Origin: Chiloscyllium plagiosum
Lineage: Eukaryota
NCBI RefSeq assembly: GCF_004010195.1
Contig: NC_057752.1
Location: 7,976,835-8,016,152 of the forward strand
Length of the DNA stretch: 39,318 bases
Direction of reading: 5' to 3'
How positions within the stretch are numbered: the first letter of the stretch is position 1; each line of letters opens with the position of its first letter. The notes below the pieces were generated by a model. That model was not told where the DNA came from. It worked only from the letters and a program-made list of their open reading frames with translations, and did not search any database. The translations under genes were made by a program, and so were the position numbers. Below are positions 9,360 to 39,074 of the stretch, in pieces.

Positions 9360-9722
9360 GCCAGTGCCTGAGTTGTTTCACTCACCTCACCTGTGGAGAA
9401 AGGATATAAACTGGTGTAATCTGGAGAAACTGCAACACCGCCAGCCCAGATCCATTTTGGACCATGACCTGGGAGATGCCCCAAATGTCTCCAGTTGTTC
9501 CTTGGAACAAGCCGCTGACATAACATTTCAGGGCAGATGTAGCCAGTGCCTGAGTTGTTTCACTCACCTCACTGTGGAGAAAGGATATAAACTGGTGTAA
9601 TCTGGAGAAACTGCAACACCGACAGCCCAGATCCATTTTGGACCATGACCTGGGAGATGCCCCAAATGTCTCCAGTTGTTCCTTGGAACAAGCCGCTGAC
9701 ATAACATTTCAGGGCAGATGTA
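9360..9722. repeat. Tandem duplication, 2 x ~182 bp
   Basis: gccagtgcctgagttg...gggcagatgta repeated head-to-tail with a 1-nt indel and a substitution. Confidence 0.95.
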
Positions 9723-10160: not shown

Positions 10161-10395
10161 TGAAATAACTCCACAGAGGCTGGTATCCCATCATCAAGTT
10201 ACCCTTTATTCACACATGGGAAGTCCTTGACACTGACGCAAGCTCCCTCAGAGCCAGCTCTCTGCGTGCCAGAATGTCTGACACTCTGGTTTTAATCTGT
10301 CAGCCAGGGCTCCCTGATTGGGCTGTTAATATGGTTCAATAAGGGAACTCATATTCCTTGACGTCCACCTAACTGACCTTGTTATAATCACTACA
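10161..10395 (-). repeat. 3' LTR of the Gypsy element (target site empty, mutated)
   Basis: TGTAGTGATT...TATTTCA on the - strand, 235 bp, adjacent to the PPT; site reads gacactctggtttt at 10280-10293. Confidence 0.9.
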
Positions 10396-11198
10396 TCCCT
10401 CTCCCTCAGAGTCTGAGGTCATCGGCCATGTCTTTCTTGACCATCTCTTCCTGGGGCATCTTAATATTGGGTCAGGTTCCTCCAACTTTGCTTCGGATAT
10501 AGACGGTGTTTAACACACATTAGTTCGCTTCTTGTGCCCAGAGCATTTTGGAAGAAATTCATCCTCTTCAGGCGACAAATGTGTTGGGGCTGGGAGATCT
10601 ACCGTGTCCATCTCCGATTCCAAGATCTCTTCAATGCTTGACAGAGAGGGAGAACACACAGGTTCTAACAGCCTTTCCGAATCTTCTGAGGTAGGCAGGT
10701 TTTGCTCCTGCATGTTTGCGAATTTGCAGCTTTCATGTGGCCCACATGCTTATTCAGAACCATCTCATCTATCCAAACTTTATATGTCACTGGACCTGAC
10801 CTCATGTCAACCACGCCTCTCACCCATGTAGGGCCATTCCCATGGTTTCTACGCCAAACTTCACCCCTTGCAGGAAACTGTCTCTCTCGCTTAGAGGAGT
10901 CTTGTATCCAGCATTGGTGTTCCTGATGGCATTTCACCCCCTGCCCTAGGAGCAGGAGGATCAGATTTAACCTGGTGCGAAGTCTTCTCCCCATAAGCAA
11001 CTCTGCTGGAGCTATCCCTGTATTTGCATAAGGGGTGGTCTGATAATCAAATAGGATCCTGGACAGTTTGGTATGTAGTGAAGGTATAGGCCATTTCTTT
11101 CAGCCTGCCTTCAAAGTTGGGACTACACTTTCTGCCAGACCATTGGATGATATGGAGCAGTAGTTTTTTTGATGAATACCATTTGACTTTATGAAATA

Positions 11199-11415
11199 GA
11201 GTCATTCCTTCTATAACACGATAGTCACGTTCCCATGTGACCCTGCGCTACACAAAAATTGTGCAATACAAATAATACATAAGTGTTAGTAATCTAATCG
11301 CATTATAACCAAACACGTTTTACAAGTTCACGTTTTAGAAACAGTGTTCCCTATTCACCAATTGCACTACAGCCAACCTGCATTAATGAAAGACACGTTA
11401 TAGCAGAACTGACTG
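11199..11415. mobile_element. Tc1/mariner-pogo (Tigger-like) MITE inside the Gypsy integrase
   Basis: TA at 11197-11198 and 11416-11417; imperfect ~22-bp TIRs (gagtcattccttctataacacg / cacgttatagcagaactgactg). Excision restores integrase FTSRQFEYFIKSNGIH. Confidence 0.85.
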
Positions 11416-14400
11416 TACTCAAATTGCCTGCTAGTAAACGGAGGCCTATTATCTGTGACCAACACTTCTGGGAGTCTGTGTATTACAAAACATGCATGCA
11501 ATTTTTCTATTGTTGTCCCTGTGTATGACTCTATGCATGTCCAGCTGCTTTGAACTGGCATCCACAATGACTAAGAACATTGAGCCCATAAAAGGGTCGG
11601 CATAGTCGATGTGTAATCGAGTCCAGGGTTTACCTGGCCATTCCCATGAATGTGGGGCTCTGCTGCCAGGAATTTTTGTCCTTGCTGGCGATCTGGGCAC
11701 TGCCTCACCAGCATGCATCCAATCCTGGTCACCAGACATAGCTTCTCACCGACATCCTTTGGAAACTCCTGGTGGAGTTCAGCCAGTATCTGGCAGCAAA
11801 CTTTGCTTGGTACAGTCATTCTTAATCCCCATAATAATATGGGGATTATCCCCTACTGTGAACTGGTGTCCAAAACGTTTTCAATTCGGGTTGTGACGGT
11901 TCTTTGGTTTCCCCCATTACCAACAGTTGTTTCAGTTTTGCCAGGGCTGGATTGTTCTGCGTACAAAATCTGATATTGTCAGCTGTGACTATAAGTGTGT
12001 CCAGAAAATTTAAAACCATTATGGACTCTACCACTACTGGTGTATCTGCCAAAGAGAGGGGGTTCATGCATCCACATTCGCTACTCAGCCTCCCAGACAG
12101 TGTTCCAACTTGTAGTTATGTGCAGAGTTCAACCTGAAGCTATGGGTGGCTCTGCCGTATTCTCCTTAAGTAGATCTAGCAGGGGTTTGTGGTCTGTTAT
12201 TATTACAAATTTACATCTGTAAAGGTATTGGTGAAACTTCCTAACTCCAAATATGACCGCTGAACATGCTTCTCTATCTGGGCGTATTCATGCTTTGCAT
12301 TAGCCCAAGTCCTGGATGCATATGCTATTGGGCATTCCTCTCCACTGGGCCTCCTATGATCTAATACCACTTTGATGCTGTATAGGAAGGCATTGCACGT
12401 CAATACCAGATTTCACTTGGGATCATAAATGTGCCAATGCCTGAGAGGATGATAGCTGTTTCTTCACTTCCCTGAAGACAATGGCTTGGCTATGCAACCA
12501 TTTCAAAAGCTGACCCTTTTTTAGGAATTGGGGTGCCTGGAACAGACATTTTTCCCTTCTAAGGCATCCCCATGTGGGAGAAACATCTAAGAACCATGTC
12601 CAAGTTCTCTAAGTGCTCATTATTGGTCTTCCCTGTTCTTAGCACATCGTTTAGATTAACAGCAACCTGGGGTAGACCTTGTAAAAGGTTTTCCATTTTC
12701 TGCTGAAAGGTGGTGCAGGCTGACAATATCCCAAATAATACAGTCTCGTATATTGGTACAAACCTCATCTAGCCGCAATTGCAACTACGCATGGCTCATG
12801 TCCAGTATTCATGAAGGATAGCCCCTCAGTCAGCCTTGCGTCTAAATCCTTTGTACAGGGGATTGGTTATTTATCCAGCTGCAAAAAGCAGTTTACTGTT
12901 TGTTTAAAATCCCCACAAAAGCGAACCATCCAAGTAGGCTTCACTGTCAGAAAGACAAGTGCTGCCCATTCCACAAACTGGACTGGTTTGATGATTCCTT
13001 CGCTTTGCAGCCTCCTGATATCTGTTTCTACTTTTGGTGGGCCTTGCAGCATCATGGAATTGCTTCCTGGTCAATATGTAAGGTGGCCTCGGCTCCTTTG
13101 ATAGTCCCTAAACCTTCCTGATAAACTTCCAGGTATTTAATAAGGACTTCAGTCAGGCAGTCATTTTCAAATCAAGGTGAATATTTCTCAACCAATTTCG
13201 ACCCATCAGGCTTGAGCCCGAGCCTTTTACCACAATCAGTGGCAAAGAGACCCGAACTGAAGTTGTACCCTTAATCTCTAAAGGTTCTCAGTCTAAACGA
13301 GGCCTTGTGCAAACTTAAGGGTTGGCGTCCAGAGCGAATTCTGTTAAAGATTTGTTCTTCAGTCACTGATACGATTGTGCTAATATCATCCTCCATTTAA
13401 CCAGATATTTATTTTGATTGGTTCTGATTTGGATGTTGTTAAGCAAGTTCACTGTCCCACATCGGATGTAGGTTGACGTTCCAGGGTGTTGACTCTCCTA
13501 GATACCACCCTATGTGTTCTCTTAATCAATTTTGGTCTAGTGGGTCTCCTTTGCTGTCTCAAGTCCGCATGTAGACAGGCAGGAGGTTAGATGAACACAG
13601 CAAGCCAGGTAGCATCAGGTGGAGAAGTCACATTTTGGGTATAACCCTTCTTCAGAGGGGAAACAAAACCAACTCTCTCCTCAAGTCCGCATACCGGCAG
13701 CAACTATGATGCCTTGCTGGCCAGGATCCTGAAGAAAATCTTAACCTTCTGGCCAAACCTTGGGTTTGTTTTGGGGTTTTGCTGAGGGCTGACCTAGAGT
13801 CCCTCTGTTCAGGATATGTCCTGAGTGAGGCTGTGCAATTGCCTTCACTCAAATGGTGTTCTCCAAGCTCAGTTGCACTGGAGAGGGTGTCTGCTTCCCT
13901 CTAAATACTCTGCAACTCATATGCTCCATTTACTGCATTTTCCAAGGATAAAACCAGTTGTAAGGCCTGTTTGAAGTCCAGTTAGGCTTCAGCTAGTAGG
14001 TGCTTTTGCACAGTAACATCATTAATCCCACATACCAAATGGTCTCTCAGCATCTCATTAAGGGTTAAACCAAAGTCACATGTCTGTGACAGTCATCAAA
14101 ACCTAATCAAAAATCATGATATGGATTCCCCTGATTCTTAAATTGCTGAGAAAAACAATAGCATTTCAGAATGAGGTGCAGCTTGGGGTTGTAATATTCC
14201 TTAACTAAATCCATAAACTCAAAGGGTTTTAGTACCTCAGGGAAAGTTAGGCTCCTAATAACTGAAAAAGCTGCGGGTCCACAAACTGTCAGAATTACTT
14301 GTTGCTTTTCATCTGCCTCAATGGCATTTCCCATGAAAAAGAAATGTATTCTTTCCATGTACCATGCCCAGTCTTCAGCAGGATTGAACAAGTCAAGTTT

Positions 14401-14613
14401 CCCAAATAATGGCACGATGCCAGAAACACTCACCTCAATTCAAGATGACTGTTACAAGTGAATTTCTTCAGGAGCGTGCTTTGCTCTGGTCACCACTGAA
14501 ATAACTCCACAGAGGCCAGTATCCCGTCACCAAGTCACCCTTTAGTTACATGTGGAGAGTCCTTGACACTGATCCAGCTCCCTCAGAGCCAGCTCTGACT
14601 GAACAGAACCCCT

Positions 14614-15419
14614 AATATTCCTGTTTTTTTTTTGCTAACCCTCACACTACCGCCTAACTGCGGTAGCGCTTACTTTTTTTTCCCCAGCACCCATGGTGCG
14701 TGTGTGTGCAGGTGTGAGACACAGTGAGAGACACAAGGTGCACAAATCTTTATTCAATTTCCACCACCAGGAAGATAGGAAAACACCCGGGTGGCCAGTG
14801 ACAAGCAGTGCCCTTCACAAAAAAGGGCAATGCGGTGTGGACACTCCTGTTTCTTTTTTATTATGCTGACACTCCTGTTCTTTTTTTTCCCACACTACCG
14901 CCTAACTGCGGTAGTGCTTATTCTTTTCCCCAGCACCCATGGTGTGTGTGTGTGTGTGTGTGTGNNNNNNNNNNNNNNNNNNNNNNNNNNNNNNAACCCC
15001 CACACTACCGCCTAACTGCGGTAGTGCTTATTTTTTCCCCAGCACCCATGGTGTGTGTGTGCAGGTGTGAGACACAGTGAGAGACACAAGTTATACAAAT
15101 CTTTATTCAAGTTCCACCACCAGGAAGATAGGAAAACACCTGAGTGGCCAGTGACAAGCACTGCCCTTCACATAAAAGGACAATGCTGTGTGGACACTCC
15201 TGTTTCTTTTTTTTAAGATTTTTCTTTCTTTTTTTTAAACTTTTTTTCTTTTTTTTGTGCAGGTGTGAGACACAGTGAAAGACACAAAGTGCACAAATCT
15301 TTATTCAATTTCCACCACCAGGAAGATAGGAAAACACCTGGGTGGCCAGTGACAAACACTGCCCTTCACATCAAAGGGCAGTGTGATCAAAAACAGTGAA
15401 GGGGAGACACTCCTGTTTC
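14614..15419 (-). mobile_element. Stack of 5'-truncated poly(A)-tailed non-LTR retrotransposon 3' ends (Tx1-like) in the Gypsy 5' LTR
   Basis: Target repeat gacactcctgtt(t) at 14840, 14868, 15193 and 15406, with a diverged copy aatattcctgttt at 14614. All but the last are followed by T-runs (poly(A) on - strand) and related ~200-bp units or a very short stub. Removing the inserts restores a continuous LTR. Confidence 0.82.
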
Positions 15420-15659
15420 TATCTGTCAGCCAGGACTCCCTGATTGTACCAGATTAACAGCCCCAGTTAGTGAACTCCTATTCTACGAGGTCCACCTGGC
15501 TGATGTCATTACAATCATTCCACCTGACAGTATGCTTTGGCAGCTTCACAAGGCCAGTGTCATGCCTCAATATTCTGAGCTACATCACCTTATACAGATG
15601 TATATCAACAGATACAAAGTGCTCATGCTACACTAATGCAGTGAAATTTAGGCACTTCT

Positions 15660-25428: not shown

Positions 25429-25748
25429 GGCGGCATGGTGGCTCAGTGGTTAGCACTGCTGCCTCACAGCGTCAGTAACCCAGGTTCAATTCCCGCCTTG
25501 GGTGACTGTCTGTGTGGAGTCTGCACATTCTCCCTGTGTTTGCATGGGTTTCCTCCGGGTGCTCCGGTTTTCTCCCACAGTCCAAAGATGTGTTGGTCAG
25601 GTGAACTGGCCATGGGAAATTGCCCATAGCGTTAGGTGCATTAGTCAGAGGCAAATATAGGGGAGAGGAGTGGGTCTTGGTGGATGTGGACTTGTTAGGC
25701 CGAAAGGCCTGTTTCCATACTGTAGGGAACCTAATCTAATCTAAAAAA
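25429..25748 (+). mobile_element. tRNA-derived SINE (HE1-like)
   Basis: ggcggcatggtggctcagtggttagc A box, ggttcaattcc B box, (ctaat)n tail. Confidence 0.9.
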
Positions 25749-27107: not shown

Positions 27108-27607
27108 NNNNNNNNNNNNNNNNNNNNNNNNNNNNNNNNNNNNNNNNNNNNNNNNNNNNNNNNNNNNNNNNNNNNNNNNNNNNNNNNNNNNNNNNNNNNN
27201 NNNNNNNNNNNNNNNNNNNNNNNNNNNNNNNNNNNNNNNNNNNNNNNNNNNNNNNNNNNNNNNNNNNNNNNNNNNNNNNNNNNNNNNNNNNNNNNNNNNN
27301 NNNNNNNNNNNNNNNNNNNNNNNNNNNNNNNNNNNNNNNNNNNNNNNNNNNNNNNNNNNNNNNNNNNNNNNNNNNNNNNNNNNNNNNNNNNNNNNNNNNN
27401 NNNNNNNNNNNNNNNNNNNNNNNNNNNNNNNNNNNNNNNNNNNNNNNNNNNNNNNNNNNNNNNNNNNNNNNNNNNNNNNNNNNNNNNNNNNNNNNNNNNN
27501 NNNNNNNNNNNNNNNNNNNNNNNNNNNNNNNNNNNNNNNNNNNNNNNNNNNNNNNNNNNNNNNNNNNNNNNNNNNNNNNNNNNNNNNNNNNNNNNNNNNN
27601 NNNNNNN

Positions 27608-27960: not shown

Positions 27961-29369
27961 TCTGAGAAATGCTGTTGAACCACCCATAGCAAAAAAGACC
28001 AGGAAGCTGGATAAACTCAGTTGAAAGTGCTTAGAAATAGGAACTGCCCTCAGAGTAATGTGTGCAACAGTGTTTGTTCAATAAGTTAAAAATCACACGA
28101 CACCAGGTTATAGTCCAACAGGTTTATTTGAAAATATAAGCTTTCAGAGCGCTGCTTCTTCTTCAGATAGCTAGTGAAGCAGATACATAGGATACAGAAT
28201 TTATAAGAAAAGGATCAAAGTGTCGTGTGATTTTTAACTTTGTCCACCTTGGTCCAACATCAGCACCTTCATATCATGTTCAATAAGTGGAACAACTTTA
28301 AACTTCTGAAGTGACATCTAGAATGTTTCATTCTGTTCACGATACTAGCTGCAGACATTGACTTTTAAGCTGATAAACTCTAAGCCAAATATGAAGAGCA
28401 ACATCACATGAAATACATTTAATCACACCTGGCTGTTATACGATAGACACTGTACTTAGTTGTACAAGCTGGAGCAGACATTTGATTAATCTAGCCTTGC
28501 TTTGCATTCAGTTCTCTTCCGCCTTTGATTTTGCGCCAACAGCCATTGCACTTGTACAGTACTTATGCCAGAACCTCATTAAAGCTCTAGAATGCATGCC
28601 AAAATATTTTAATAAATAGCTTGAGCATTTTCTTGATTTTTGCACTGGGAATGTATTTTTTATCCTCTAGGAACTTTTTGTCTATTTCTCAATCGATCGC
28701 TCTCATTTTCTACCTCAGTCTCTCTATCTTTCCCCAAAACAATCGCAGACCACACCCTTCCATCCTAAATGACTCCCACAAATTACTCATACATCCTTCC
28801 CACAACCACTACTCATAGCATTGCTACCCTCATTTTCAGTCATCCATTACACACCGTTCCCATATGCCTTCTGCTTCACTTGGTGAGTGAGGATACAGAG
28901 AAGTAATCCATTATTCTGCATCCATTAGCACTCCTAAATGGGGAATTAATGTGCAACCATAGAGTCATAGAGCACAGAAACAGATGCTTCCCTTCAACTA
29001 GTCCATGCCAACCAGGTTTCCCAAACTAAACTAGTCCCACTTGCCTGCATTAGGGCTTTTGCCCGAAACGTCGATTTTACTGCTCCTCGGATGCTGCCTG
29101 ATCTGCTGTGCTCTTCCAGCACCACTAATCCAGAATCTGGTTTCCAGCATCTGCAGTCATTGTTTTTACCATAGCCCACCAAACCTTTCCTATTTATGCT
29201 CCTATTCAAATGTCTTTTAAACGTTGTGACAGTACTTGCATCTACCACTTCCTCTGGCAGTTCATTCTACATATGAACCACTCTCTGTGTGAAAAAGTTG
29301 CCCCTCAGGTCCCTTTTAAATCTTGCCCCTCACACCTTAAAAAGATGACAATTAGTTTTGAATGCCCTA

Positions 29370-29602
29370 CAAAGATAACTCCAGAGAGGCCAGTATCCCA
29401 TCACCACTTCAACCTTTATTTATGTTGGAGAGTCCTTGACACTAATCCACTTTCTCAGAACCAGCTCTCAGAATGAGCAGAACCTGCGACACTCCTGTTT
29501 ATATCTGTCGGCCAGGGCTCCCTGATTGAACTAGATTAACAGCCACAATCAGGGAACTCATATTCTAAAGTCCATCTGGCTAACCTCATTACAATCACTA
29601 CA
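29370..29602 (-). mobile_element. Solo LTR of the same Gypsy family, empty target site
   Basis: Colinear with 10161-10395; single gacactcctgttt at 29488-29500, overlapping TATAAA (- strand, 29498-29503). Confidence 0.88.
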
Positions 29603-30369
29603 TCTGCCCTAGGTTAAGTCAGAATGAGGTCAGAATAAATATCATCTGACAGCAGACAAGCTCAGTCTGTGACCACTCTAGGCAATTTAATGATGAACTA
29701 CCTTTTTTTTTATGACAAATTAATGGCAGCTTTATAACATACTTACCAGTTAAAGAAAAAAAAATAGCAAGTAGTTCCAAATAGTACTGACTGAGCTGTT
29801 GCTTTCACAAGATCTCTGCGCCTCTTGCATTCATTATCCACCTTCCTTCACCAGTTTCTATTCACAGTTCATTGCTATTCTGGTCATCAACTGGTCATCA
29901 ACAATGCAACAGCTGCCTCATCAGTCAAGATTATTTCACTCATATAATGGGAATATTCAGTCAACAACAATATACCTATTAGGTTATATAATGTTTAAAT
30001 ATTATGCAATGATTAATCAAGTGAAATGCTGCTGAGGCACTTGTCATAAAGTAACTGAAGCATTAATGTGGTAATGACTTTGGGCAATGAAAGTAACCAA
30101 AATTAATGCAAGTTACATATCTGAGGGTCCCAGATAAATTCAAGTTGCAAAGTACTCATAGATGAACTGTTTCCGATTGATGGAGTTTTAGATTTACTAT
30201 AAAGTTACAGTTTATTTTCCTGCACTCTTCAAGATTTAAAAACTGCTAACAGTAGAGCATCTGTGAAGCAGTTCCATATGCCCTTTTATTTACAGCCCAC
30301 AGTATAGCTGAGGCACAGCTTGGTGCCAAGCAAGAGTAAAGAGAGCTAGAACACAGTTCAGGGCCTCAC

Positions 30370-33119: not shown

Positions 33120-33515
33120 GTTTAAAACATAGAGTACTTACAGCACATAAAGAAGCCATTTGGCCCATCAAGTTATTTCTCACCCTTCAAAAGAGCATCC
33201 CACCCAGACCCAGACCCAGCCCACAACCCTATCCCCATAACACCACATTTAGCAGGACCAATCCATATAACCTGCATATCTCTGGACACTACGGACAATT
33301 TAGCATGGCCAATCCACCTCGCTTGCACATCCCTGGACTCTGCGGGACAATTTAGTATGCCCAATCCACCCTAACCTGCACATCCTTGAACTGTGGGATG
33401 AAACCGGAGCACCCAGCAGCAACTCACGCAGACATTGGGTGAATGTGCAAACTCCACACAATCACTCAAGGATGGAACTGAACCTGGGTTCCACCACTGA
33501 GTCACCATGCTGCCC
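33120..33515 (-). mobile_element. tRNA-derived SINE with internal ~45-bp triplication
   Basis: Head ...gagtcaccatgctgccc; three copies of atttagca/gtatgg(c)caatcca...gcacatc between about 33245 and 33390. Confidence 0.8.
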
Positions 33516-33593: not shown

Positions 33594-34613
33594 TGTAGTG
33601 ATTGGACCAAGGTTGGCCAGGTGGATCTCACTGAACATGAGTTCCCTGATTGGAAGCCCTGGTTGACAGATAGAAACAGGAGTGTTAGGTGCTGAGGGTG
33701 GTTAGTGAAGCCGGAAGGTGGGTAGGCCGTCCTGACCGCTGTCACCCCGGGCGGGTACCGGGGCGGGCTGTCCTATAGGTGGTCGAAAGGTGTGTCAGGG
33801 CAGACCGAGAACTGGAAGGGGCATGGGGTGGACTGAGAACCAGAAGGTGGGTGGGGGGGGGGGGNNNNNNNNNNNNNNNNNNNNNNNNNNNNAAGGGCAG
33901 TGTTTGTCACTGGCCACCCGGGTGTTTGCCTATTGTGAGTATATGTGCAAGGACTCTCCTTGAAGGGGACAAGAAAAAAATAAAATAAAATAAACAGGAG
34001 TGTCGCATGCGGTGTCGACCAACACCCTGGAGTTGTTCAGGAAGAAAAAACAAAATAAACAGGAGTATCGCTGTCACCCCGGGCGGGTACCGGGGCAGGC
34101 TGTCCTAGAGGTGGTCGAAAGGTGTGTCAGGGCAGACCGAGAACTGGAAGGGGCATGGGGTGGACCGAGAACCGGAAGGTGGGTAGGGACGGGCTGCCTT
34201 AGAGCGCTCGGAAGGTGGGAGGGGCGGGGGCTTGCTGGGTCTGTATTGTCTGCACTTTTGTATGTAACAGTACTGTCTAATGTACAACTGTCACTGCTGT
34301 TTGTGAAACTGGGATTTGAGGTTTGTCCTCATGTCCCTGTAAACTGTCAGAATGGTAGGGTTTGGGGCCTGGCTTTGCTGCTCCTCTCCCTCGTAAAATT
34401 GCTGTCTTTTGTATGCAGCAGTTTGTTGTAGACTGTTTTTGTAATTTGTTTAATAAAATTTTATAAACAGGAAAAAAAAAGAAACAGGAGTGTCAGAGAG
34501 TCTCCTCACACAAGGTGCTGGCTCTGATCTAGCTGGTCAGAGTCCATGTACTATGCACATGCAAATAAAGGGTGACTTGGTGATGGGATACTACTCTCTG
34601 TGCAGTTATTTCA
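33594..34613 (+). mobile_element. Solo LTR of the same family, interrupted by stacked non-LTR insertions
   Basis: Begins TGTAGTGATT and ends GTTATTTCA; LTR halves 33594-33686 and 34481-34613 are colinear with the other LTR copies. Confidence 0.87.
33673..34494 (+). mobile_element. Tandem Tx1-like non-LTR retrotransposon fragments with target-site duplications
   Basis: AAACAGGAGTRTY copies at 33674, 33992, 34057 and 34482; the last three are each preceded by an A-rich tail. 34070-34480 is a GT-rich 3'UTR with AATAAA plus poly(A). 34005-34041 encodes HAVSTNTLELFR, which I recall as a Tx1 ORF2 C-terminal motif. Confidence 0.8.
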
Positions 34614-36900: not shown

Positions 36901-37369
36901 TCCTGCTGGTTTCCACATTTTAGCAACATTTTCTTTGACGGATGAGGCTTCTCAAGACCCAGGTGAATAGACAAGGCATCTGCTGCCCAAATTCTAGCCC
37001 TCCTCATCCTCAAAGTTCTCACATGACATGAGTAGATTTTGCAAACTAGTGCTCCCAGCAAATACTATTACAAATGGGCAGTGGATAAGATGTGTACATC
37101 AGTGTGCCTCACACAATTTGTAGTCAACTAACTTTAATTCACAAAAAAACAAAACTTTGCTTCAGATTGCACAAAAAAGTACCCTTGTTCATAAATGTAT
37201 GGCGATTTCCTCTCTTATATTTCTCATTGTAAGTATGTTTATTTTTAAGTTGGAAATCTTCACAAAGGCTCCTGTAATGTTGCTACAAGTTACCAGAGGA
37301 AGTATCTCAGTAATGGATATAACTGCAATCAGATGATCATCAAAAATCAATATATTACCATTTCATTTT

Positions 37370-37646
37370 GATTAGATTACTTACAGTGTGGAAACAGGCC
37401 CTTCGGCCCAACACCGACCCTCTGAAGAGCAACCCACCCAGACCCATTCCCCTACATTTACCCCTTCACCTACCACTACGAGCAATTTAGCATGGCCAAT
37501 TCACCTGACCTGCACATCTTTGGACTGTGGGATGAACCGGAGCACCCGGAGGAAACCCACGCAGACACGGGGAGAACGTGCAAACTCTACACAGTTGCCC
37601 GAGGCGGGAATTGAACCCAGGCCCCTGGTGCTGTGAGGCAGCAGTG
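37370..37646 (-). mobile_element. tRNA-derived SINE, 5'-truncated
   Basis: Colinear with the SINE at 201-495; B box present, A box missing. Confidence 0.85.
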
Positions 37647-38727
37647 TACAAATTCCAGCAAACTTCCCTTTGTGGACAAGGTGTTGGGCAGGGAAACCGG
37701 TCAGTTATTTGTTCACCTGATCTATTTCGAAACTAACAGAATAGGTAGGTCATATTACCACCTATATGATTTTGCCTAATTTTTACGTGGGATTATGAGG
37801 AAGCTTTAAAATTAAATCCCAGAAGACTAATGTTACATCTTTTGTTTTGACAAACAGAAATATTTTTTCTCTATATTTTTAAGTTTGTTATTGTCTGGAC
37901 TGTTAGTTATTGAAATCTTTGATCAACTTAAGTCATTAGCAGGATAGACCTTAGAATTCAAACGGCTCTCCTACATAGCCTCCATCCCATATTCTGAACA
38001 CTGAACAGTTTTCAGGTTGATCTTACAATACTTTTGTCCAGTTTCCAGAGTTCAGACAGCAGGAGGCAATGTGCTTATCCCACTATGTCTCCAATCCATC
38101 TTGTTTTTTTTGTCATGCCTTTGATCCTCTTCCTATTATCAAAACCAACTCCATGTTGATAGTGTATAGTTCATAACCAGGATTTAATCAAGTCTATGAA
38201 AAAAAAACTATTTCATCAAGCACAGATAATTCTGAAATATTCTCTTTCCAAGAAGATTGTGGATGCTGAAGATCAATTGAAATTTGCTGGGAAAGGATGT
38301 CAAAGGATGCAAATCAAAGGTAGGTAAATGGATTTGACATACAGATCATGATCTGATGGAATGGCAAAATGGACTCAAGGGGACTGAATGGCCTGCTCCA
38401 AGGCAGCTGTCCTTTTGCATGAAGCAGACTTTGAGCGCACAATCTAGAATATTTCTGGGATGTAAACCTGACACCAAGAGATTGTGACTTTATGGCACTG
38501 TGATGTATATGCTTTCTTTTTATATAGTACTCTGCATTGCTTTAAATATTCTGAGTGTCCAGCACTTCTGTCAGCATTGATGGCTCCCTGGAAAGTGATT
38601 ACAGCTTCTGGTGAGACACCTCTGTCGATTTGAGGAAATGCAACCCTTTTGTTACAAGTCACCACTGCCACCTGGCACCATTGATAAGACAGCATACAAG
38701 CAGTTACATCAGAAACCTGGTATCAGA

Positions 38728-39074
38728 AGAAAAGAAAACTGGCACTGTGGCTGTACCATCAGATCCAACTCAAGCAGGAAACCATATTGGATAGTTGTTC
38801 AAAACACTGTTATTAAGATATCAAACACATCTTGAAAATACATGTTGAAACTTTATTGCTGGAACAGCACAGCAGGTCAGGCAGCATCCAGGGAACAGGA
38901 GAAAAGAAAACTGGCACTGTGGCTGTACCATCAGATCCAACTCAAGCAGGAAACCATATTGGATAGTTGTTCAAAACACTGTTATTAAGATATCAAACAC
39001 ATCTTGAAAATACATGTTGAAACTTTATTGCTGGAACAGCACAGCAGGTCAGGCAGCATCCAGGGAACAGGAGA
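38728..39074. repeat. Tandem duplication, 2 x 172 bp
   Basis: agaaaagaaaactggcactg...gggaacaggaga repeated, apparently without mismatch. Confidence 0.92.

Follow-up and report, generated by a model that had tools for sequence, protein, structure and literature searches.

The LTR copies and their insert arrays

The window, a 39,318-nucleotide stretch of Chiloscyllium plagiosum DNA analysed over its full length, contains four copies of a long terminal repeat (LTR) of about 231-235 nucleotides (nt), two of which are occupied by arrays of short A-tailed inserts. The features are as follows (window positions).

29371-29602, minus strand: empty solo LTR (roughly 231 nt) from a Gypsy-type family, with an approximate end near 29371
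29498-29503, minus strand: TATAAA, probable TATA box, at position 100 of about 231 in the LTR
29488-29502, minus strand: 15-nt insertion target, duplicated on insertion; present in nine copies around the inserts in arrays A and B
29470-29476, minus strand: initiator-like TCATTCT, with its A at 29474, the predicted start of the empty LTR
29415-29420, minus strand: AATAAA, probable LTR polyadenylation signal, at LTR position 183
10161-10395, minus strand: empty 3' LTR of a decayed Gypsy element, its TATA position decayed to TTAAAA and the polypurine tract just upstream
10396-14496, minus strand: decayed gag-pol region of the same element, with many stops and frame changes
14497-15522, minus strand: 5' LTR of the same element, split by array A; TATA position TAGAAA
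14614-15420, minus strand: array A, about five co-directional A-tailed units between five target copies
15206-15405, minus strand: unit A1 of array A
14995-15192, minus strand: unit A2a of array A
14880-14964, minus strand: unit A2b of array A
within array A, minus strand: a 14-nt stub
14627-14839, minus strand: unit A4 of array A
33594-34613, plus strand: second occupied LTR, with no visible internal region; TATA position TAGAAA
33672-34494, plus strand: array B, co-directional A-tailed pieces, with outer target copies of the G form
33687-33991, plus strand: piece B1 of array B, with a 28-N gap
34005-34056, plus strand: piece B2 of array B
34070-34481, plus strand: piece B3 of array B

The solo LTR matches the other three copies at 72-83% over the main matching segments, and contigs of the same family cease to match it at 29602 and near 29375. 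Identical seven-letter sequences (29362-29368 and 29605-29611) flank it, a few bases off its ends. On the minus strand 29488-29510 reads GACAGA-TATAAA-CAGGAGTGTC, with one C before it. The initial annotation had placed the start of the duplicated target inside a TATAAA upstream of the AATAAA, and this proved exact, as the 15-nt target takes in all of TATAAA but its first letter, together with the 10 nt that follow the motif, meaning that an insert would start about 10 nt downstream of the TATA box, as was also proposed.

The element that hosts array A appears to be a Ty3/Gypsy-type LTR retrotransposon. Its LTR pair has TG...CA ends and flanks that agree at four of five letters (a short target duplication), a TGG-type primer binding site adjoins the 5' LTR and the purine tract is in place. 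Within the internal region RT_RNaseH and RT_RNaseH_2 score above the Pfam cut-off, with the RNase H divided between two frames, while gag, reverse transcriptase and integrase motifs were placed by eye, the last two having no Pfam hit in single frames. There are 63-81 stops per frame and the longest stop-free stretch is 144 codons. A retroviral identity was rejected, since no sign of env was seen by eye. Unrelated stretches, also recognised by eye, interrupt the integrase region (~11200-11420) and the gag-protease junction (~13560-13680), the second of these resembling a short repeat found at 29044-29121, 36636 and 38844.

All inserts are poly(A)-tailed and lie in the same direction as the LTR, with lengths of 14-412 nt (B1 spans a gap); the gaps at 14965-14994 (30 N, array A) and 33865-33892 (array B) make the unit counts and lengths lower bounds. 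A further assembly gap, at 27108-27607, is outside the insert arrays. At least two unlike insert types use the same site, and A-tails with target duplication, one recurring site and one orientation were found throughout (nine target copies, two arrays). The window holds no full-length insert and no coding part of the inserting element, whose assignment to the Tx1 clade is thus putative; arrays A and B gave no Pfam hit in six frames, and insert sequence has no match outside the LTR target anywhere in the 39 kb. Helitron and Penelope-type inserts were rejected, since the A-tails, like the duplications of 15 nt, are in line with target-primed reverse transcription.

Array A contains five target copies and array B four. 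The U3 side of both occupied LTRs reads GACAGATAGAAACAGG, as the initial annotation reported for occupied copies. The G form is present in four of the five copies of array A and in both outer copies of array B, from which it follows that the array B site was TAGA before insertion. The T form is limited to two of the nine copies, both within array B (within 33977-34069, plus strand) and between the G-form flanks; the last nine letters of the B3 tip before its tail (within 34450-34494, plus strand) are of the T form as well. The simplest reading is that array B may have been copied whole, as one RNA, from an occupied TATA-type LTR, although the T letter could alternatively derive from AAAAT-type tails. 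Where a T-form target copy follows an A-tail, the joined letters make up AATAAA, which is a poly(A) signal. In array A the final target copy (14614-14628, minus strand) has 4 of its 15 letters changed from the empty site, with G to A accounting for three of them, and the other four copies of that array are near-intact.

Units A1, A2a and A4 start 6-21 nt ahead of a hairpin common to all three, which has a stem of at least 11 bp and a compensatory A-T/G-C pair (15348-15405, 15150-15192 and 14797-14839, respectively, minus strand). A2a and A4 share their first base, which lies 15 nt further in than that of A1 relative to this hairpin, and the 6 nt ahead of the hairpin in A2a and A4 fail to align with bases 16-21 of A1; these two units may be one event that was later duplicated. 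The A units match neither the A nor the B box of Pol III, contain runs of four or more T and carry their own AATAAA. They may represent a short non-autonomous element whose 5' end is defined and, if so, the missing Pol III boxes and the T runs imply that they need transcription from outside. A second, perfect hairpin (9-11 bp stem) precedes the A-tail of A2a, A2b and A4 (14995-15025, 14885-14912 and 14636-14665, respectively) and is absent from A1, which is tailed earlier; it is a possible 3' recognition stem. When A4 was folded whole its z-score was -1.47, which is not significant.

The probable core promoter of the LTR family

TATAAA is intact in only one of the four window copies of the LTR, the empty solo LTR. 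The initiator consensus is YYANWYY, to which the solo LTR offers a full match whose A is 29 nt past the first T of TATAAA, and three of the four window copies have CA at this offset. In 20,000 first-order resamples of the solo LTR, TATAWA together with an initiator match at 28-34 nt appeared in 0.38%, compared with 8.6% for TATAWA alone, and the rarity of the pair argues that the layout goes beyond chance. On its sense strand the LTR is A-rich (5 of 7) nowhere but at the TATA box and the poly(A) signal, and the TATA-proximal stretch is the best-matching part of the family contigs. TATAAA is probably the genuine core promoter of an abundant and old Gypsy-type LTR.

The state of this motif across the family was read from four public runs aligned to 29330-29650 at 80% likeness. 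The DNA runs X1 and X6, which bear two organism labels, supplied 8,949 and 9,051 contigs, some of which do not span the TATA site. Each run has two A-to-C places at 5% or above, at 29412 and 29545, both accounted for elsewhere, so the TAGA letter at 29501 must be below 5% of depth in X1 and X6, with the provisos that contigs lose rare variants and that, although none of the 40 of 102 differences listed is another change within the six TATA letters, smaller variants there may exist. The initial annotation had asked whether the LTR consensus carries TATAAA, and TATA is indeed the majority form of the family. The exact 22-letter target pattern was found at no locus in metagenome and viral contigs.

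Against this background, both occupied LTRs of the window have TAGAAA, which at a base rate below 5% gives p <0.0025 if the two are independent. This may point to an LTR subfamily or to TAGA sites being preferred (n=2), and the T-form inner copies of array B indicate that a TAGA preference would be no strict rule.

The RNA evidence consists of run X21, with 151 poly(A) single-cell reads drawn from about 2% of the run and prepared without cap selection, together with run X22, which yielded 0 reads. RNA was aligned to the empty LTR only, where RNAs starting inside inserts are invisible. No pile-up of starts at the predicted initiator was seen among the 151 reads of X21. U3 and the TATA box, upstream of the predicted start, are covered at a depth of 78-110, which fits read-through and suggests that much of the LTR-family RNA arises in this way. 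On the assumption of an antisense first mate, approximately 87-89% of the depth at the TATA box is LTR-sense. Three sets of loose ends at the target edge, of 15, 8 and 8 reads (agreement 0.45-0.48), could reflect either insert junctions or R regions that have diverged, and were left out of the count of occupied copies.

These data bear on the idea that the endonuclease chooses the target and that promoter-less units and whole arrays are then amplified opportunistically from RNAs begun outside them, the sources being upstream read-through across U3, an LTR enhancer and sometimes the TATA box, as proposed for SINEU and shown for R2. The Pol III-less A units with their T runs and own AATAAA, the start of three of them close to one hairpin with a compensatory pair, the apparent co-transposition of array B, and the LTR-sense bias with U3 covered are all consistent with it. 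R2 has a ribozyme. Against the idea, an HDV-like or hammerhead core was found in none of the seven units, using our own loose patterns on short units only and with no positive control, and Rfam gave no hit in the window at gathering score (array A had one chance-level hit, E 0.93, and array B none). Moreover, no unit bears a U3-derived 5' extension, the units may be merely 5'-truncated 3' ends of a LINE, and the sense bias is explicable by oligo-dT priming on the genomic A-tails of the inserts. We regard this explanation as possible but doubtful.

Spacing between the TATA box and the first inserted base

The initial annotation proposed that a full-length, co-directional insert could take over the LTR promoter. 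Insert sequence begins 16 nt past the TATA box's initial T, and the initiator A of the empty LTR is at 29. In mouse CAGE data the best start lies 30-31 nt from the first T, and when the TATA spacing is altered, initiation resettles about 30 nt away from the box (PMC1779604). Given a junction at 16 nt and initiation at 29-31 nt, transcription anchored to the TATA box would begin at base 14-16 of the insert, and the resulting RNA would lack the first 13-15 nt, a loss that would be repeated anew in each generation. Conversely, a start at base 1 of the insert would place the TATA box only 16 nt away, much under the -30/-31 optimum. A borrowed start would thus land within the first bases of the insert, as had been proposed, but would not preserve the 5' end of the element.

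Nor do the occupied copies support the idea of a usable promoter. Neither of the two occupied LTRs in the window has an intact TATA, a count that says nothing of other loci, and TAGAAAAA is among the weakest TATA mutants in yeast assays (PMC2396422), although this weakness was measured in yeast and in a different context. The first inserts, A1 and B1, have no initiator match at bases 14-16, and what stands behind the TATA position in the window is not a full-length insert but pieces of 14-412 nt. Promoter hijacking by the inserts is not supported by these results.

In its strict form, where an autonomous element depends on the LTR TATA box and the target has been selected so that RNA starts within the full-length insert, promoter theft seems to us quite unlikely. 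It can draw on the predominance of TATA in the family with an initiator at the proper distance, on the co-direction of all inserts, on the start of A2a and A4 15 nt inward of A1, on the inner target copies of array B, which suggest a TATA-type source LTR, and on the dependence on flanking transcription that has been proposed for the Tx1-mobilised SINEU (PMC4494074). However, the distance between junction and start would cause loss in every round, and the lost 13-15 nt would have to be replaced, for instance by template jumps or through a 5' tip that is repeated or disposable. The occupied LTRs lack TATA, the window lacks a full-length insert, and A1 and B1 lack the initiator match. The inward start of A2a and A4 is also open to another account, as their 6 nt before the hairpin are unaligned to A1, which makes descent from an A1-type copy unnecessary, and the two may represent a single duplicated event. 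Ordinary sequence targeting fits the spacing and the copies seen here better than promoter theft.

Probable endonuclease targeting of a conserved A-rich site

The probable explanation, which we hold with moderate confidence, is that an endonuclease targets a conserved A-rich site and that breakage of the promoter is a side effect. The inserts would have been made by target-primed reverse transcription, through a non-LTR retrotransposon that is sequence-specific and probably a member of the Tx1 clade. Its endonuclease would nick within the TATA box, on the T-rich strand. This first nick would fall between plus-strand positions 29502 and 29503, a location deduced from the geometry of target-primed reverse transcription; the freed T-rich end would prime on the poly(A) of the RNA, and a second cut 15 nt along would give rise to the duplicated target. 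Such a site may be used because it is conserved, high-copy, A-rich and located in a dispensable repeat. As the nick is asymmetric it would fix the direction of the insert with no benefit from a promoter, and we accordingly rejected co-direction as a sign of promoter use. Insertion would part the TATA box from the initiator and so break the LTR promoter, mostly in copies that had already decayed, and the autonomous element would obtain its 5' end otherwise, from its own promoter or from upstream read-through.

Two observations sit less well with targeting alone. The 15-nt offset of A2a and A4 is the loss predicted for a TATA-anchored start, and the T-form inner copies of array B look as if they came from the RNA of a TATA-type LTR. 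Both would be footprints of a process in which a target-specific LINE and its short promoter-less dependants use the LTR TATA box: Pol II would start about 14-16 nt into the first unit and read through the array, and the RNA would be recopied into further LTRs while a 5' tip that can be dispensed with takes up the loss, but we consider that process unlikely.

The degree of specificity implied by endonuclease targeting can also be questioned, since an abundant LINE with an L1-like preference for nicking at T-rich/A junctions might strike the TATA box as a mere hot spot, the A-tails then drawing further hits. The nick context does resemble the 5'-TTTT/AA-3' of L1 (PMC1950540), and the use of one site by at least two unlike insert types would be in keeping with this. 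Set against it are the nine recurrences of an identical 15-nt duplication, the complete absence of insert copies outside the LTR target in 39 kb, and the fact that the poly(A) signal, the other A-rich site of the LTR, has received no insertion in any of the four copies. The lack of any dedicated targeting is in our view very unlikely.

For the host, the insertions have the structural effect that was first proposed, in that co-directional inserts inside the occupied LTRs split U3 and the TATA box from the initiator, R, U5 and the primer binding site. Because the TATA box is severed from the initiator and the A units carry AATAAA, the occupied 5' LTR cannot make a normal Gypsy RNA. The further suggestion that the full-length element was disabled in this way fares less well where it implies the killing of an active element, as the coding region is riddled with stops and the divergences differ. 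Between the two Gypsy LTRs 48 of 230 sites (21%) differ, whereas the A units differ from one another at 8, 9 and 11 of 128 (6-9%) and B1a from B3 at 5 of 119; the contrast between the LTR pair and the A units gives Fisher p values of 0.0002 and 0.003 (two pairs tested), with the reservation that tandem units may be homogenised, which affects insert divergence as a measure of age. This suggests that the inserts are younger than the decayed LTR pair and that they hit an already old copy. Against a younger age, the 4 of 15 changes in the last target copy of array A would have p ~0.02 if divergence were 7%, which could date the first hit in array A to the age of the Gypsy copy, and the upper bound on the age of A4, 6.3% (CI 2.7-11.9), overlaps the LTR age of 10.4% (CI 7.9-13.3).

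Endonuclease targeting of this kind has precedents. Tx1-8_Crp and Tx1-4_AMi, crocodilian LINEs of the Tx1 clade, prefer LTR retrotransposons (Kojima 2015, PMC4494074) and, like the inserts described here, are non-LTR elements that favour specific LTR retrotransposons as target; in the related SINEU-3, tandem insertions sandwich a target duplication, again as seen here (PMC4494074). The present site overlaps the probable TATA box, and the clade of the inserts is putative. Tx1L of Xenopus laevis, whose endonuclease nicks nearly only its own target, likewise has a single endonuclease-defined site in another transposon, with little harm to the host, but that target is the DNA transposon Tx1D and not an LTR core promoter (PMC1950540).

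Where transcription is concerned, SINEU with Tx1-Mar and R2 illustrate that a targeted element may do without a promoter if its target is transcribed (PMC4494074). Their RNA starts upstream, so that the 5' end is kept, and SINEU-2 copies bear 5' extensions from upstream starts, whereas a TATA-anchored start here would be inside the insert (PMC4494074). The head-to-tail non-LTR arrays of HeT-A at Drosophila telomeres also have their promoter outside the transcribed copy, yet this is the 3' UTR of the upstream copy itself and buffers 5' erosion (PMC5537684), whereas a borrowed TATA box 16 nt before the junction would cause erosion. In the openly accessible papers searched, we found no report of a LINE that targets an LTR TATA box or uses its promoter.

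An LTR core promoter would be a well-defined addition to the known targets of site-specific LINEs. Each hit severs the LTR TATA box from its start site, and such an element could thereby thin out cryptic LTR promoters. Should the promoter truly be borrowed, this would bear on how Tx1-mobilised elements with no obvious promoter are transcribed.

The window has other repeats besides those of the LTR family. Two 80-nt inverted arms (2496-2575 and 2918-2997), 96% complementary and 342 nt apart, are either MITE-like or two opposed copies of a repeat. Near-perfect two-copy tandem duplications at 9360-9722 (181 nt) and 38724-39074 (172 nt) are recent duplications or assembly artefacts. Finally, a tRNA-headed SINE-like repeat, which we take to resemble the shark HE1 SINE, is present in four copies, at 204-494, 25429-25740, 33128-33490 and 37367-37646.
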